A stretch of DNA of 4,301 nt from a virus (lineage: Duplodnaviria; Heunggongvirae; Uroviricota; Caudoviricetes), in IMG/VR virus record IMGVR_UViG_3300000293_000103; one strand, 5' to 3'. Positions 69 to 4,139 of this stretch are shown piece by piece; position 1 is the stretch's first letter, and each line of letters opens with the position of its first letter. The position numbers were made by a program, and so were the translations under genes. Under the pieces are notes generated by a model. The model did no database searches. It was given only the letters and a program-made list of their open reading frames with translations, and had not been told where the DNA came from.

Positions 69-208
69 TTTTGTGATGCGGTGCCTGGTGCCTCCAGGTG
101 ACGTTAACCAGTTAACAATTAACGCCGGATACAGAGAATCCACCCATAACACTGTTTTTGGTTTTAACTGTTCCGCGTGCGCTTAGCCGCATTCACCGCA
201 TCACAAAA
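69..208. repeat. Perfect 15-bp inverted repeat pair (TTTTGTGATGCGGTG at 69-83; CACCGCATCACAAAA at 194-208) enclosing 110 bp
   Basis: Exact reverse-complement match read directly. The enclosed segment contains a CCTGG-N5-CCAGG palindrome (84-98) and closely spaced TTAAC repeats (104-108, 112-116, 119-123). No ORF on either strand. Confidence 0.8.
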
Positions 209-350
209 TTCACTTTAAAAAGGGCGGCAGAGCAGTCACGGAGTAAAACTGATACCGCCAAATGTCACCAGAAAATTGATAACAGAGGGCGTTGCAGCGG
301 GGTTGTCACTTAAGCGTATGGTCAACCTGACAACCCGGTGTCCTCAACGG

Positions 351-1237: not shown

Positions 1238-1418
1238 GCTGACCTCATTTCCCCTTAACGCCGGGGTAGCGGAACAAAAACCTGCTGCATAGTTATTAAA
1301 GTTGAACCCTGCCGTCATGTTCTTACGCCTCGGGCTGGCTACTTAACCCCTGACCACTGCCTGGTAACTCGAAGTATTGCCCTGCATTCTGTGGGGCGGG
1401 GTGGGTTGGTATGCTGTT

Positions 1419-1447
1419 AAGGTAACAAGAGTTACCTTTCGAGTCAA
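1419..1447 (-). promoter_or_regulatory. Leftward early promoter (PL-like): -35 TTGACT (1447-1442), 17-bp spacer, -10 TACCTT (1424-1419), with embedded operator
   Basis: Hexamers read on the minus strand. The geometry mirrors the rightward promoter at 2220-2249, with the same palindrome in the spacer. The -10 is weak (TAnnnT only). Confidence 0.4.
1421..1436. promoter_or_regulatory. Operator OL: palindrome GGTAAC-AAGA-GTTACC
   Basis: Perfect 6-bp arms with 4-bp spacer; same GTAAC-N4-GTTAC core as the two sites at 2185-2198 and 2233-2246. A lone GGTAAC half-site is at 1363-1368. Confidence 0.55.
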
Positions 1448-1479
1448 TACGATGTTGCAAAAGGTACATTTGAGAGCGT

Positions 1480-1505
1480 GAAAAACCCGCAATGAATGCG
1501 GGTTC
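1480..1505 (-). terminator. Rho-independent terminator of the repressor gene
   Basis: On the minus-strand RNA: 8-bp stem AACCCGCA/UGCGGGUU with loop UUCAU, followed by a U tract (UUUUUC in total); begins 5 nt after the repressor stop (1512-1510). Not terminator-like on the plus strand. Confidence 0.6.
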
Positions 1506-1509
1506 TGAC

Positions 1510-2184
1510 TCAGTCTAAGTATTGATGTATTTGTGAAACTTTACCTTTAATGGTGTAACCACCATTCAGTTCGATGGGTTTGTAAAGCGGATTCAGTGAC
1601 AACAGATAGATGTTTGGTCCGTCAATCGCAACTTTTTTTAGTGTTACGTTTGGCGTTCCTTCCAATTGGATTAAGATTATTTTTCCCACCAGTTCTCTAA
1701 TGTTACTTGAGCATGGTGTGATCAGCACGGTAGATCCATCGGGGATGGTTGGGAGGCCGTTAGAGTTTGTCATCGCATCTCCCTCAACATGCAATAAAAA
1801 AGAGTTTTCAGCGGTTTTTGTCATGACATCAACCCAATTCTTAATGCCAGGAATCTCGGTTACTGGACAACTCATATCCCAATAACCAGCCTGTTCCCAC
1901 GTTAAAACGGGCAACCGGGCGATGTTGTCACTAATGTAAAGATACTGATTCAGACGCAGATCATCGGTTTTATCGTGACCGTCCTTTCCATAAAGAATCC
2001 ATTCAGGAGATTTGGAAAGCAATTTTGACAGTAGATGCAAATTCTCACCGTCAGGTTTTGAAGAGCCATTTTCCCATTTTGTTACGGATACACGAGATAT
2101 GCCGATTGCTTTCGCAACCTGCTGTTGGGTTAATCCAACGTCTTTTCGACGATTCCGAATACGTTCGCTGATAGTGTTTTTCAT
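1510..2184 (-). CDS. Prophage CI/C2-type repressor: N-terminal XRE-family HTH plus C-terminal LexA-like S24 peptidase domain, with Ala at the catalytic Ser position
   Basis: N-terminus MKNTISERIRNRRKDVGLTQQQVAKAIGISRVSVTKWENG matches the P22 C2 / DicA HTH pattern. Linker has an Ala-Gly (EQAGYW) at the expected cleavage position. C-terminus has HVEGDAM...TLKKV, i.e. the S24 motif with Ala for Ser. Start placed at ATG 2184-2182 by alignment to P22 C2; the ORF-track TTG start at 2283 would run across the operators and the cro start. Confidence 0.88.
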   Translation of the reverse strand: MKNTISERIRNRRKDVGLTQQQVAKAIGISRVSVTKWENGSSKPDGENLHLLSKLLSKSPEWILYGKDGHDKTDDLRLNQYLYISDNIARLPVLTWEQAGYWDMSCPVTEIPGIKNWVDVMTKTAENSFLLHVEGDAMTNSNGLPTIPDGSTVLITPCSSNIRELVGKIILIQLEGTPNVTLKKVAIDGPNIYLLSLNPLYKPIELNGGYTIKGKVSQIHQYLD

Positions 2185-2198
2185 GTAACCAATGTTAC
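2185..2198. promoter_or_regulatory. Operator OR-a: GTAAC-CAAT-GTTAC, directly abutting the repressor start codon
   Basis: Palindrome with 5-bp arms and 4-bp spacer, same core as the other two sites. It lies where the repressor-maintenance promoter would be autoregulated. Confidence 0.5.
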
Positions 2199-2219
2199 TA
2201 CCAAGTGATGTTGCTATGG

Positions 2220-2249
2220 TTGACATTGCTATGTAACTATTGTTACCCT
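2220..2249 (+). promoter_or_regulatory. Rightward early promoter (PR-like): -35 TTGACA (2220-2225), 18-bp spacer, -10 TACCCT (2244-2249), with operator OR-b GTAAC-TATT-GTTAC (2233-2246) in the spacer
   Basis: Consensus -35; weak -10; operator overlaps the spacer and -10, the classic repressible arrangement. OR-b differs from the OL core at one central base. Confidence 0.45.
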
Positions 2250-2275
2250 CCTGCTCGAAATAACAGGAGAGTTTT

Positions 2276-2491
2276 ATGTTCAAAGATGATGTTCTGCGCT
2301 ATTTCAAAAAAAAGCGACTAGTAGCTGAGGCTCTTGGAATTTCACATGTGGCTGTTGTGCGGTGGAAAGCAGTTATTCCCAAACTTCGCGCAATGGAACT
2401 GGATGAAATTACTAACGGTGAATTGAAATACAACCCAGAACTTTACAAGAAGCAGGATAGCACCTCGAACGAAGGAAAGAATGATTCATGA
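2276..2491 (+). CDS. Cro-like small HTH regulator (DicC / YdaS-like)
   Basis: AGGAGA 5 nt upstream of the ATG; 71 aa, MFKDDVLRYFKKKRLVAEALGISHVAVVRWKAVIPKLRAMELDEITNGELKYNPELY. Divergent from the repressor. The pattern matches my recollection of Qin DicC (LYFGSKTKLAQAAGI...SWKG...GRAMRLQE..GGELQYDPKVY). Confidence 0.85.
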   Translation: MFKDDVLRYFKKKRLVAEALGISHVAVVRWKAVIPKLRAMELDEITNGELKYNPELYKKQDSTSNEGKNDS

Positions 2492-2913
2492 AAATCAAGC
2501 ATGAACACATCCGCATGGCGATGAATGCCTGGGCGCATCCGGACGGCGAAAAAGTACCGGCTGCGAAAATTACCAAAGCGTATTTCGAGCTGGGAATGAC
2601 GTTCCCGGAACTGTATGACGACAGCCATCCGGAAGCCCTGGCTCGCAATACCCAGAAAATTTTCCGCTGGGTAGAGAAAGACACCCCTGATGCAGTTGAA
2701 AAAATTCAGGCGTTGTTACCAGCGATCGAAAAGGCAATGCCACCTTTGCTGGTGGCCAGAATGCGCAGCCACAGTTCAGCTTATTTTCGGGAGCTGGTGG
2801 AGACGCGGGAGCGACTGGTGAGAGACGCTGATGATTTTGTCGCAGTGGCAATCGCCGGTTTCAATCAGATGAACCGTGGTGGCCCGGCAGGAAATGCTGT
2901 GGCAGTACATTGA
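2488..2913 (+). CDS. ydaT: YdaT-like protein (functional CII analogue / reported toxin in Rac and CP-933P-type prophages)
   Basis: Its ATG (2488) overlaps the cro-like TGA (2489-2491) as ATGA. 141 aa beginning MKIKHEHI, which I recall as the YdaT N-terminus; position matches the racR-ydaS-ydaT-ydaU order. Not searchable here. Confidence 0.7.
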   Translation: MKIKHEHIRMAMNAWAHPDGEKVPAAKITKAYFELGMTFPELYDDSHPEALARNTQKIFRWVEKDTPDAVEKIQALLPAIEKAMPPLLVARMRSHSSAYFRELVETRERLVRDADDFVAVAIAGFNQMNRGGPAGNAVAVH

Positions 2914-2984
2914 CTGACAATAGCCATATCGAATCGCTTCCGGCAACTCGTGAGTAAAAAGATTCGGTATCAGAAGAGGTGAGT

Positions 2985-4139
2985 ATGGCTAACGCCTGGC
3001 TCAGATTATGGCATGACATGCCAAATGACCCTAAGTGGCGAACAATTGCCAGGGTGTCAGGGCAGCCAATTGCAACAGTGATGGCAGTGTATATCCACCT
3101 CCTGGTGAGCGCGTCACGAAATGTCACGCGAGGTCACATTGATGTCACGACAGAAGATTTGGCAAGTGCGCTCGACGTGACAGAAGAGGTAATTGATTCA
3201 ATTTTGCAGACGATGCAGGGGCGGGTACTTGATGGTGATTTAATCACTGGATGGGAAAAACGCCAGGTGCTGAAAGAGGACAACGGCAATATTTCGCAAA
3301 CCGCAAAGTCTCCGGCAGAGCGCAAGAGGGCGCAGCGAGAGAGGGAAAGAAAGCGGGAACAAAATGGCGATTGTCACGGCGAGTCACGAAATGTCACGCA
3401 CATGTCACGACGAGTCACGACAGATAAAGATACAGATAAAGATACAGATCAAGAAGATCAAAACACTATGGTCCATGGCGTAAAAAACGCCACGAACCAG
3501 GCAGGGGATGTTCAGACCGTCACTCCTGGCCAGCCCGCAGGCACGACACCGGAAGCCGATTCAGCGTATGCGCTGAAAGCCGATTCGGGCGCTGTGCAGC
3601 AGGTGATGACCGCAAGGCAGGAGCAATCACACCAACTTCAGCAGCCTGAAGCCGATTCCGCCATTCAGCGGGAANNNNNNNNNNNNNNNNNNNNNNNNNN
3701 NNNNNNNNNNNNNNNNNNNNNNNNNNNNNNNNNNNNNNNNNNNNNNNNNNNNNNNNNNNNNNNNNNNNNNNNNNNNNNNNNCACCGGGCAGCCTATGGGA
3801 CGAGTGGATTATCCTGATGTGTTCGAACAGGTCTGGCGGGAATACCCGTTGCGTGCCGGGGCAAACCCGAAGAAATCCGCTTTCAGTGCCTGGAAAGCCA
3901 GATTACGCGAGGGGGTGCCACCAGAGGCCATGCTGGATGGCGTGAGGCGTTACGCAAGATACCTTGCGGCTACCGGGAAAACGGGAACGGAATTTGTTCA
4001 GCGAGCGACGACGTTTTTTGGACCGGACCGGAATTTTGAAAACCCCTGGCTGCTCCCGGTAAGCGGCACGAACAACCAGCGTTGTGTGAATCATATTTCT
4101 GAACCGGATACCGAAATTCCACCGGGCTTCAGGGGGTAA
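2985..4139 (+). CDS. Phage replication initiator-like protein (lambda O / Rac YdaU-type), with iterons and a low-complexity linker inside the gene
   Basis: ATG 2985 preceded by GAGGTG with a 5-nt spacer (the track's GTG 2979 is 2 codons upstream); TAA at 4137-4139. Structured N-terminal domain, charged KR/DE-rich linker coinciding with the DNA repeats, conserved-looking C-terminal domain (YPDVFEQVWREYP...FSAWKARL...RYARYL...FFGPDRNFENPW). The frame is assumed continuous across the N gap at 3675-3781. Confidence 0.7.
   Translation: MANAWLRLWHDMPNDPKWRTIARVSGQPIATVMAVYIHLLVSASRNVTRGHIDVTTEDLASALDVTEEVIDSILQTMQGRVLDGDLITGWEKRQVLKEDNGNISQTAKSPAERKRAQRERERKREQNGDCHGESRNVTHMSRRVTTDKDTDKDTDQEDQNTMVHGVKNATNQAGDVQTVTPGQPAGTTPEADSAYALKADSGAVQQVMTARQEQSHQLQQPEADSAIQREXXXXXXXXXXXXXXXXXXXXXXXXXXXXXXXXXXXXTGQPMGRVDYPDVFEQVWREYPLRAGANPKKSAFSAWKARLREGVPPEAMLDGVRRYARYLAATGKTGTEFVQRATTFFGPDRNFENPWLLPVSGTNNQRCVNHISEPDTEIPPGFRG
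3113..3149 (+). repeat. Iteron cluster A: four direct GTCAC(G/A) repeats at 3113, 3123, 3133, 3144 (10/10/11-bp phasing), plus an inverted GTGAC at 3177-3181
   Basis: Read directly; the 17-mer GTCACGAAATGTCACGC is identical to one in cluster B (3383-3399). Confidence 0.65.
3373..3419 (+). repeat. Iteron cluster B: five direct GTCACG repeats at 3373, 3383, 3393, 3404, 3414 (10/10/11/10-bp phasing); candidate origin core
   Basis: Read directly; helical-turn phasing is typical of initiator binding sites (lambda ori lies inside O). Immediately followed by the AT-rich repeat. Confidence 0.7.
3421..3464 (+). repeat. AT-rich tandem repeat (CAGATAAAGATA x2, then degenerate CAGATCAAGAAGATCAAAAC) with two GATC sites; candidate DNA-unwinding element
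   Basis: About 70% A+T, A-skewed on the plus strand, adjacent to iteron cluster B; GATC at 3447-3450 and 3456-3459. Encodes the DKDTDKDTDQEDQ linker peptide. Confidence 0.6.
3675..3781. other. Run of 107 N (gap or masked) inside the replication gene
   Basis: Literal N characters; 107 is not a multiple of 3, so reading-frame continuity of the flanking ORF is an assumption. Confidence 0.95.

Follow-up and report, generated by a model that had tools for sequence, protein, structure and literature searches.

Do the two small, overlapping genes beside the repressor of this lambdoid Escherichia coli prophage encode growth-inhibiting toxins or the regulators of a lysogeny switch, and is that switch intact? 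Such pairs have been called 'toxins' in some accounts and Cro/CII analogues in others, a double history that the first-pass annotation of this DNA had mentioned and that the literature bears out (PMC5700377, PMC5917428, PMC8630535, PMC9986795, PMC11879457). The stretch of DNA analysed here, 4,301 nucleotides in full and referred to as the window, carries on its plus strand a cro-like gene (2276..2491; 71 aa, ATG start) and ydaT (2488..2913; 141 aa, ATG start). The cro stop TGA (2489-2491) shares bases with the ydaT ATG (2488-2490), so that the two open reading frames overlap as ATGA at 2488..2491, just as first described. A CI-type repressor gene with HTH_3 and Peptidase_S24 domains diverges from them on the minus strand (1510..2184). 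Downstream of ydaT lies a gene for a replication initiator or replisome organiser (2985..4139, plus strand, broken by masked Ns), whose product matches phrog_3729, 'replication initiation protein', at 3.8e-241 and is annotated in RefSeq as a phage replisome organizer. The order of repressor (-), cro (+), ydaT (+) and replication initiator (+) places ydaT in the co-directional slot expected of its family.

Judged from its sequence, the product of 2488..2913 is a YdaT-family protein, a CII analogue predicted to have a POU-like HTH domain and a tetramerisation helix. Protein searches with both products, which the first-pass annotation had proposed as a check, support the YdaT assignment and match the upstream protein to P22_Cro. 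The 141-aa protein scores above the cutoff of Pfam YdaT_toxin (PF06254; 7.4e-10, 39.6 bits against 21) and matches phrog_163, 'CII-like transcriptional activator', at 1.9e-45 over residues 1-128. It is 96.5% identical to PDB 3C4R, 86.4% identical to 8BT1, the characterised YdaT of CP-933P, and 33% identical to YdaT of Rac. Full-length identity to the solved 3C4R and 8BT1 extends to this protein their POU-like HTH and the tetramer formed through a four-helix bundle of long helices. Arg60-Trp61 of the recognition helix is present, and Arg60 is the sole invariant residue of helix alpha3 in YdaT (PMC9986795). The YdaT proteins of Rac and CP-933P cross-activate, and that of CP-933P footprints TTGATT-N6-AATCAA and activates PRE933P (PMC9986795, PMC8630535). 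Phage phi80 CII has been named as a YdaT homologue (PMC8630535); this was not reproduced here, as phi80 is absent from the tblastn matches of YdaT in the phage collection, which comprise 14 records only at E<=1e-5.

The 71-aa protein is, by the same kind of comparison, a Cro of the P22-Cro/DicC type, DicC-like rather than DicC. It matches Pfam P22_Cro (2.9e-16, 59.4 bits against a cutoff of 30.2), phrog_409 (1e-22) and, over residues 1-59, the structure of P22 Cro (PDB 1RZS, 9.3e-12). It is 39% identical to DicC of the K-12 prophage Qin but falls below the NCBIfam DicC cutoff (NF007282; 56.1 bits against 130), so the original label of a DicC-like Cro stands for the resemblance and not for membership of the subfamily. 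A YdaS identity was considered and rejected: the protein scores 18.5 bits against a cutoff of 30 for Pfam YdaS_toxin (PF15943), and BLASTP finds no match to Rac YdaS. The description of the genes as a Rac/CP-933P-type pair consequently fits the YdaT half and fails for the Cro half.

A 4-nt ATGA overlap is common and carries no statistical weight of its own. What accounts for it here is the inverted repeat that spans the junction, ATGATT-CATGAA-AATCAA (ATGATTCATGAAAATCAA, 2481..2498), the (T/A)TGATT-N6-AATCAA site expected of the YdaT family at this position, found by pattern scan. These 18 bp are identical to the experimentally validated YdaT-box of Rac, so the overlap is part of the YdaT operator; it exists because the spacer CATGAA holds both the ydaT ATG and a TGA. 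The Rac box was footprinted and its mutation abolished a 29-fold activation (PMC11879457). The box in the window also differs by only one base from the OM site of CP-933P (PMC9986795). When up to 2 mismatches are allowed, the window has no other match to TTGATT-N6-AATCAA. In Rac, YdaT has further targets in the racR-ydaS intergenic region and at host rcsA; with a single site in the window, there is no evidence for Rac-like binding of YdaT between cI and cro. Since 58 of 200 shuffles of the 4.3-kb window matched the box pattern as well, the match is not significant alone, and its evidential weight lies in position and conservation.

The ATGA sits within a conserved 16-mer, GATTCATGAAAATCAA, that accompanies ydaT whichever cro gene is upstream, and at least 10 unrelated upstream genes are followed by it. 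The same ydaT allele follows at least 5 (in a set of 80 loci) or at least 10 (in a set of 194) unrelated cI-cro modules, with the module boundary 7-9 nt before the ydaT ATG; nucleotide homology of the window to isolated phages begins at about 2483. Any cro recombined into the frame of the spacer TGA terminates '...Asp-Ser-stop'. Among 80 IMG/VR loci with ydaT at least 98% identical, the upstream frame ends at the same TGA in 53 and overlaps by 17 nt in the remainder, and in Rac a 22-nt gap separates ydaS from ydaT with no overlap at all. The ATGA overlap is real, yet the YdaT family does not depend on it as a conserved feature. Translational coupling of ydaT to cro is plausible here, because ydaT has no well-placed Shine-Dalgarno sequence, but it would be a by-product rather than a family requirement. 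A hairpin that might sequester the cro Shine-Dalgarno sequence (2248-2270) was no better than shuffles (z -1.34), and an Rfam scan of 2276-2913 returned nothing but one chance lncRNA match.

From this box, YdaT could activate a leftward, PRE-like promoter feeding the repressor gene. Comparison across loci predicts an extended -10, TGcTATCCT, on the minus strand at 2454..2462, with a start near 2447 and the box centre near -42.5. In all 10 independent upstream families, a -10-like TAnnnT hexamer occurs on the opposite strand at 20-22 nt beyond the left half-site, whereas every other 3-offset window within 140 nt has one in at most 3 families. The hexamer recurs at this spacing in Qin and in two Klebsiella phages with YdaT proteins of 56% and 33% identity, which brings the count to 13 unrelated cro/ydaS 3' ends; Rac, with TATGAT (NC_000913.3, 1420651-1420656), is among them. 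This spacing fits a box-proximal promoter that would drive repressor synthesis. The TATCCT of the window (2454-2459) is weak, and no -35 can be recognised ahead of it. A generic sigma-70 scan of 1300-3000 on both strands found no promoter, a miss that is expected for an activator-dependent promoter; because of it, the assignments of PR, PL and PRE rest on hexamers read by eye and on comparative spacing.

The published interpretation for Rac is different: its YdaT-dependent promoter, PracR4, is placed about 190 bp from the box rather than adjoining it (PMC11879457). By analogy, YdaT in the window could activate a distant reverse promoter within cro, or the box could be mainly an autoregulatory operator or roadblock, with no promoter beside it. 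The roadblock version draws on the fact that the box covers the ribosome-binding region and ATG of ydaT, so that its occupancy could block translation or PR read-through. We regard both versions as unlikely. The cro gene here is unrelated to ydaS and the sigma-70 scan found no promoter-like site within it, and the -10-like hexamer keeps its fixed distance of 20-22 nt from the box in 13 unrelated contexts, Rac included. In Rac itself, ydaT expression is unaltered by box occupancy; the reporter appears to have contained both candidate promoters, and we found in PMC11879457 no experiment on the PracR4 hexamers in which YdaT was induced.

Operators of a second kind surround the divergent repressor. 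At <=1 mismatch, GTAAC-N4-GTTAC has three matches in the window, all perfect, and none of 200 shuffles reached three. An OR1-like palindrome (GTAACTATTGTTAC, 2233..2246) occupies the spacer that separates -35 from -10 in the presumed PR, with TTGACA (2220-2225) 7 nt upstream of it. An OR3-like copy (GTAACCAATGTTAC, 2185..2198) abuts the repressor start codon, and homologues with 66-89% identity preserve 'SNIGY', its translated form. Midway between them, a degenerate third site (GTTGCTATGGTTGA, 2210-2223) that retains 7 of 10 half-site positions was picked out by eye and is tentative. The remaining perfect copy, OL (GTAACAAGAGTTAC, 1422..1435), falls in the presumed PL of the ydfABC-dicF operon, where TTGACT (1447-1442) and TACCTT (1424-1419), separated by a 17-nt spacer on the minus strand, bracket it in what appears to be the same geometry as at PR. 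The repressor transcript would end at an intrinsic terminator on the minus strand, a hairpin followed by a U-run (1479..1507; -18 kcal/mol, z -4.15, with none of 200 shuffles as good).

Taken together, we are confident, short of certainty, that the locus is the switch of a Qin-type lambdoid E. coli prophage in which a P22-Cro/DicC-type Cro is combined with the CII analogue YdaT acting on a box at its own start codon, a box-proximal leftward promoter and a repressor without its catalytic Ser. Cro and YdaT would be two rightward early regulators read from one PR transcript, and Cro presumably competes with the divergent repressor for the GTAAC-N4-GTTAC operators between both genes and at PL. YdaT would act as a tetramer with POU-like HTH domains, as shown for the homologues of 86% and 96.5% identity. 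It would bind ATGATTCATGAAAATCAA, for which exact sequence binding has been shown in Rac, and turn on the leftward promoter. The resulting transcript would cross cro in the antisense direction and carry the repressor gene in the sense direction, and would for that reason favour the establishment and maintenance of repression.

The repressor itself was first taken as evidence for an intact version of the switch. The full-length part of that claim holds: the protein has HTH_3 (2e-16) and Peptidase_S24 (9.4e-17) domains, unlike the 135-aa DicA, aligns to lambda CI (3BDN) over residues 11-217, and is 54% identical to DicA in its N-terminal domain. We count 224 aa from the Met at 2184; the RefSeq start at 2226 gives 238 aa, but distant homologues begin MK... 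and the 'SNIGY' extension is translated operator. The Ala-Gly scissile site (EQAGYW, aligned with VQAGMF of lambda) and the Lys general base (TLKKV, aligned with TFKKL) are both kept. Intactness becomes doubtful at the nucleophile, where the lambda CI segment veGnSMt aligns with veGdAMt, so that a GCG Ala codon (1774..1776, minus strand) occupies the position of lambda CI Ser149 and LexA Ser119. In the homologue alignment, Ala is confined to the window repressor and three others (P0001, P0002 and P0005), and the 70 homologues at greater distance all read G(E/D)SM. The codon is GCG in 38 of the 39 loci of this allele and TCA in the other, and one allele at 88% identity (P0003) does carry Ser. 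Precedents for non-cleavability are LexA S119A and lambda CI. With the nucleophile Ser replaced by Ala, RecA-stimulated self-cleavage is unlikely, and the switch is probably blind to it, its SOS-cleavage input missing.

A fully intact, SOS-inducible lambda-like switch, with an S24 repressor that cleaves itself with RecA*, is accordingly quite improbable, even though the conserved architecture of the repressor and its occurrence in an apparently complete prophage, running from int to tail genes, in strain B20123 at about 286-315+ kb of NZ_CP142930 would suit it. The Ala codon in 38 of 39 loci, set against Ser in every one of the 70 distant homologues, counts against it. None of 50,697 phage records exceeds 43.5% identity to the repressor or 49% to Cro, although 13% of the complete E. 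coli genomes have them; this is a weak point, because the Ser-bearing sister allele is absent from those records too, and it is too weak to establish non-inducibility. Other routes of induction were sought. The representative prophage (L001) was searched for a homologue of Rem, the antirepressor of Qin, with no match, and a search of 41.7 kb for the LexA box CTGT-N8-ACAG gave one match only, in the portal gene, at chance expectation.

That the pair is instead a toxin-antitoxin or 'toxin-toxin' module serving growth or cell-division inhibition, as the Pfam names YdaS_toxin and YdaT_toxin, the RefSeq product 'toxin YdaT family protein', the 2017 Rac papers, the toxicity of derepressed Rac YdaS/YdaT (PMC5700377, PMC5700373) and the filamentation caused by Rac YdaT via rcsA (PMC11879457) would imply, is very improbable, given the Cro/CII position between repressor and replication genes, a Cro that is not a YdaS at all, the absence of toxicity and the activation of PRE by the 86% identical YdaT of CP-933P (PMC8630535), the reclassification of the pair as regulators in Jobling's letter and later work, and a literature that argues against type II toxin-antitoxin status for the CP-933P and Rac homologues.

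Several known systems resemble the locus in part. CP-933P (Sp12 of E. coli O157:H7; PaaR2-PaaA2-ParE2/YdaS/YdaT) shares with it the 86% identical YdaT (8BT1), the order of repressor, Cro analogue, YdaT and replication gene, the operator type at the cro/ydaT junction (TTGATT-N6-AATCAA there, ATGATT-N6-AATCAA here) and, in a CP-933P-type locus (L040), the ATGA overlap. Its repressor, however, is the 123-aa PaaR2 with a downstream TA pair instead of a 224-aa HTH and S24 protein, its Cro analogue, 100 aa long and of the YdaS type, has no relation to the 71-aa P22-Cro-type protein, its operators are of the GTTTAGTAA type instead of GTAAC-N4-GTTAC, and it is defective, whereas the module here lies in an apparently complete prophage. 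Rac of K-12 (racR-ydaS-ydaT) has the identical 18-bp box over the ydaT start codon, a YdaT that is a CII-like activator of repressor transcription, and the same first eight YdaT residues, MKIKHEHI, which are shared because the box region encodes them. Yet its YdaT is just 33% identical overall, its YdaS is unrelated to the Cro here, its genes are separated by a gap in place of the overlap, and RacR is unrelated to the present repressor and has no S24 domain.

Qin of K-12, with dicA-dicC-(ydfX) and ydfABC-dicF-dicB, is close at PL (YdfA 94%, YdfB 100%, YdfC 98.6%, DicF RNA 77 bits) and, more loosely, at the repressor N-terminal domain (54% to DicA) and Cro (39% to DicC); its ydfX, at 37% identity, is a shortened relative of YdaT preceded by a degenerate box. 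It differs in that DicA has 135 aa and no S24 domain, ydfX is a 96-aa remnant, and Qin is defective and uses Rem. The phages vB_EcoS-640R1 (ON470612), 813R8, Evi and Tritos have YdaT proteins 98.6-100% identical and the same downstream replication gene; the records of 640R1 and 813R8 call YdaT 'activator protein cII', and those of Evi and Tritos name it differently. In vB_EcoS-640R1, an isolated phage, the 100% identical YdaT also follows a P22-Cro-type 'DicC' and a full-length S24 repressor, but that repressor is a different allele with the canonical Ser (LESDSMS), that Cro is 38% identical to the one here, and the cro/ydaT overlap is 17 nt; in it and its relatives, nucleotide homology to the window starts only from about 2483. 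With lambda CI-Cro-CII/PRE and P22 C2-Cro-C1 the locus shares its logic: repressor and Cro genes diverge, the operators look tripartite, and cro is followed by the gene of an activator for a leftward promoter that reads cro antisense. By sequence, the repressor groups with lambda CI and P22 C2, and Cro with P22 Cro (PDB 1RZS, 9.3e-12). In contrast, YdaT has no sequence relationship with CII or C1, its target is an inverted repeat where theirs is direct (PMC9986795) and extends over the ydaT start codon, and the repressor lacks the catalytic Ser.

The Cro/YdaT module is already known and common: of 5,426 complete E. coli genomes, 698 contain it with RefSeq annotation, and its arrangement is not unusual. 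The PL operon proteins are 94-100% identical to Qin YdfA/B/C and DicF is carried; apart from the Ser-to-Ala replacement in the repressor, the locus is ordinary. Structural and genetic work on CP-933P and Rac has already covered the pair, its operator and its CII-like role, and the finding that was flagged matters little in itself. One point of added value is that the overlap is accounted for as a piece of the YdaT operator. The Ser-to-Ala repressor and the box-proximal promoter are two side results worth testing, and we tentatively join them in a single reading, possible though still somewhat doubtful as a whole. The repressor, in the allele widespread in E. coli, would be a natural 'ind-minus' pseudo-protease whose S24 fold, Ala-Gly site and Lys are kept for dimerisation and cooperativity while the Ser is lost. 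The whole YdaT family would share a class-II-like, CII-type promoter next to the box, the box being centred near -42 and not 190 bp away, and box, start and stop codon would form a portable cassette with which recombination could place ydaT after any cro. Placement of the promoter beside the box in 13 contexts could correct the model of 'activation from a distance' for Rac. If the ind-minus reading is true, a Qin-type prophage would be uncoupled from SOS, to be induced otherwise, or with a repressor that can be cleaved solely by another S24 protein present in the cell and acting in trans; the missing nucleophile bears on whether dicBF-carrying prophages respond to DNA damage.

The flagged pair consists of a cro-like gene at 2276-2491 (+; 71 aa) and a ydaT gene at 2488-2913 (+; 141 aa), both read as open reading frames with ATG starts. 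The stop codon of the first overlaps the start codon of the second as ATGA at 2488-2491, and direct reading of the window confirms both frames and these bases as the first-pass annotation had given them. Its naming of the second gene as YdaT-like was borne out by protein searches: the 141-aa product scores 39.6 bits against Pfam YdaT_toxin (curated cutoff 21), matches PHROG 163, 'CII-like transcriptional activator' (1.9e-45), and is 96.5% identical to PDB 3C4R, 86.4% to PDB 8BT1 (CP-933P YdaT) and 33% to Rac YdaT. The 71-aa product is of the P22-Cro type (Pfam P22_Cro, 2.9e-16; PDB 1RZS, P22 Cro, 9.3e-12). The label DicC-like suits it in part, as it shares 39% identity with Qin DicC but reaches 56 bits where the cutoff of NCBIfam DicC is 130. 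A YdaS identity was ruled out, with Pfam YdaS_toxin below cutoff and no BLAST match. Because this Cro is unrelated to YdaS, only the YdaT half of the proposed Rac/CP-933P-type pair is common to those prophages.

By sequence match, the cro/ydaT junction is a YdaT operator. In CP-933P, the footprint of YdaT lies on an inverted repeat, TTGATT-N6-AATCAA, where ydaS ends, and the protein switches on a PRE-like promoter that points leftward (PMC9986795, PMC8630535). Rac YdaT footprints ATGATTCATGAAAATCAA across its own start codon, leftward transcription into racR loses a 29-fold activation when this 'YdaT-box' is mutated, and the Rac and CP-933P proteins, which are ~30% identical, cross-activate (PMC11879457). 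Window positions 2481-2498 are exactly ATGATTCATGAAAATCAA, the sole match in the window, and the ATG and TGA of the ATGA overlap both fall inside its 6-nt spacer.

Comparison of loci indicates that this operator travels with ydaT. The gene is at least 98% identical in 80 IMG/VR loci, in which at least five unrelated cI-cro modules lie upstream; adding a second locus set, retrieved with the 16-mer GATTCATGAAAATCAA, raised these modules to 15 clusters in 10 independent families. Partner types include a 139-aa DicA-like repressor, PaaR2-PaaA2-ParE2 (CP-933P type), a canonical S24 repressor and the window type (Ala-S24), and across loci L004-L203 one ydaT allele stands behind at least 10 unrelated cro/ydaS genes and at least five repressor types. 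The mosaic boundary is sharp, lying 7-9 nt 5' of the ydaT ATG (window ~2480-2483), and nucleotide homology to isolated phages starts at window ~2483. Since divergence begins 7-9 nt before the ATG, the shared GAT TCA TGA gives every cro in the right frame the ending '...Asp-Ser-stop'; for other cro genes the overlap with ydaT is 17 nt, and in Rac a gap of 22 nt precedes ydaT. With a shared ydaT cassette behind such varied cro genes, the ATGA overlap is, on this comparison, a consequence of a portable unit made up of operator, start and stop, rather than a device conserved for coupling. Translational coupling may still matter in the window allele, because its Shine-Dalgarno-like AAGGA lies at least 11 nt from the ydaT ATG, whereas most other upstream families have, on sequence reading, GGAG 7-10 nt 5' of it. 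Between two other ydaT loci, L004 and L008, a run of six or seven G just 5' of the box shifts the same cro between a 17-nt overlap and the 4-nt ATGA overlap; this run may be a slippage-prone tract.

A candidate box-proximal PRE-like promoter, which would feed the repressor gene, is suggested by a predicted extended -10, TGcTATCCT at 2462-2454 (-), 21 nt beyond the left half-site of the box. When TAnnnT occurrence was profiled against distance from the YdaT box, the motif was found at 20-22 nt in 10/10 independent upstream families and in at most three for any other three-offset window within 140 nt. At the ydaS end in Rac of K-12, 20 nt from the YdaT-box, the minus strand reads TATGAT (NC_000913.3 1420651-1420656). 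The degenerate Qin dicC/ydfX junction has TACGAT at 21 nt, and in two Klebsiella phages, whose YdaT is only 56% and 33% identical, the element is TAGCAT (20 nt) and TATCAT (21 nt). TAnnnT is absent beside seven chance occurrences of the 16-mer without ydaT downstream. With the predicted -10, transcription would start near 2447 and the box centre would lie near -42.5, a class-II activator geometry. A generic promoter scan returned nothing in the box region, as expected for an activator-dependent promoter, and the assignment is therefore unproven. It agrees with CP-933P, where OM covers the PRE933P start region, and differs from Rac, for which YdaT-dependent activity is assigned to PracR4, ~190 bp away (PMC11879457). 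The Rac reporter fragment apparently held both candidate promoters, and the Rac TATGAT is a candidate alternative to PracR4.

The divergent repressor gene (1510-2184, -, from a conserved Met) encodes HTH_3 and Peptidase_S24 domains and is full-length, as proposed. In alignment, VEGNSMT of lambda CI, which holds the self-cleavage nucleophile Ser149, faces VEGDAMT, with an Ala codon, GCG, at 1774-1776 (-); the Ala-Gly site (EQAGYW) and Lys (TLKKV) are conserved. As LexA S119A and lambda CI illustrate, the nucleophile Ser is needed for self-cleavage, and because it is Ala here, the window repressor is predicted not to self-cleave. The earlier description of an intact switch holds for prophage and repressor architecture but not for the SOS-cleavage nucleophile. 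Of 76 full-length homologues, the 70 more distant ones all read G(E/D)SM. Besides the window, Ala is confined to its 99% cluster (499 member sequences) and to two relatives, one at 89% and one from Salmonella at 70%; Ser is retained in those at 88% and 66% identity. Within this allele the codon is GCG in 38/39 loci and TCA in 1/39. The repressor looks like a natural 'ind-minus' allele, carried by a prophage that is very common in E. coli. Neither a Rem-type antirepressor nor a meaningful LexA box was found in the representative prophage, and none of 50,697 phage genomes has a repressor above 43.5% or a Cro above 49% identity to those of the window. The latter absence fits poor inducibility but weighs little, since the sister allele that keeps Ser is missing from them as well.

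Three perfect copies of GTAAC-N4-GTTAC occur in the window (0/200 shuffles gave three matches): at 1422-1435 by the presumed leftward early promoter, at 2185-2198 adjoining the conserved repressor Met, and at 2233-2246 by the presumed rightward early promoter. Near-consensus -35 elements were read at 2220-2225 (TTGACA, rightward) and 1447-1442 (TTGACT, -, leftward); tentatively, each early promoter has its palindrome 6-7 nt past the -35, overlapping a TACC(C/T)T hexamer. The RefSeq repressor start at 2226 (238 aa) adds 14 N-terminal codons over the operators and is probably too far upstream. The 224-aa form is the likely product, because the 'SNIGY' peptide of the extension is translated operator GTAACATTGGTTAC and more distant homologues begin MK... 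at the Met equivalent to 2184. Its mRNA is perhaps leaderless, like the corresponding transcripts of lambda and CP-933P (PMC8630535). Between the repressor gene and the PL/OL region lies a strong intrinsic terminator at ~1479-1507 (-; -18 kcal/mol, z -4.15).

The window represents the immunity region of a lambdoid E. coli prophage of the Qin type. To the left, products are 94-100% identical to Qin YdfA, YdfB and YdfC, followed downstream by the DicF sRNA gene at 222-273 (-; Rfam RF00039, 77 bits vs gathering score 48), and the PL operon is the dicBF operon. Just beyond DicF, 70-210 (-) resembles the STnc100 sRNA below its gathering score (38.8 vs 47 bits; E 4.4e-6). To the right of ydaT lies a replication-initiator gene (phrog_3729, 3.8e-241), within which two clusters of iteron-like (G/T)GTCACG(A/C) repeats (3113-3151, 3373-3421, 3420-3443), including a perfect 12-nt tandem ACAGATAAAGAT x2, probably mark an embedded origin; the lambda origin is likewise embedded in O. 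N runs at 351-446 (96 bases) and 3675-3781 (107 bases), the second breaking the initiator gene, resemble deliberate masking rather than biology. A GC-rich hairpin with a T-run at 2739-2756 (-), antisense within ydaT in an OOP-like position, is marginal (z -1.98; ~1.8 such sites expected in the region by chance). The 1.7-kb core (1400-3100) is present at 80% coverage or more in 698/5,426 complete E. coli genomes, where RefSeq labels its genes 'LexA family protein', 'Cro/CI family transcriptional regulator' and 'toxin YdaT family protein'; in strain B20123 the region lies within a prophage spanning integrase to tail genes.

The window module follows the same logic as lambda CI-Cro-CII, and among characterised systems it stands closest to CP-933P, Rac and Qin; Qin ydfX encodes a truncated, 96-aa YdaT-family remnant (37% identity to window YdaT) with a degenerate box, TTGAACAATGAAAATCAC, upstream. 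The flagged pair is real and mainly named right, and it is already known, because the isolated phage vB_EcoS-640R1 combines a P22-Cro-type 'DicC' with an S24 repressor that is full-length and has the Ser, and its YdaT, annotated 'activator protein cII', is 100% identical. Two side results deserve experiment, namely the Ser-to-Ala change in the repressor and the conserved -10 element close to the box.
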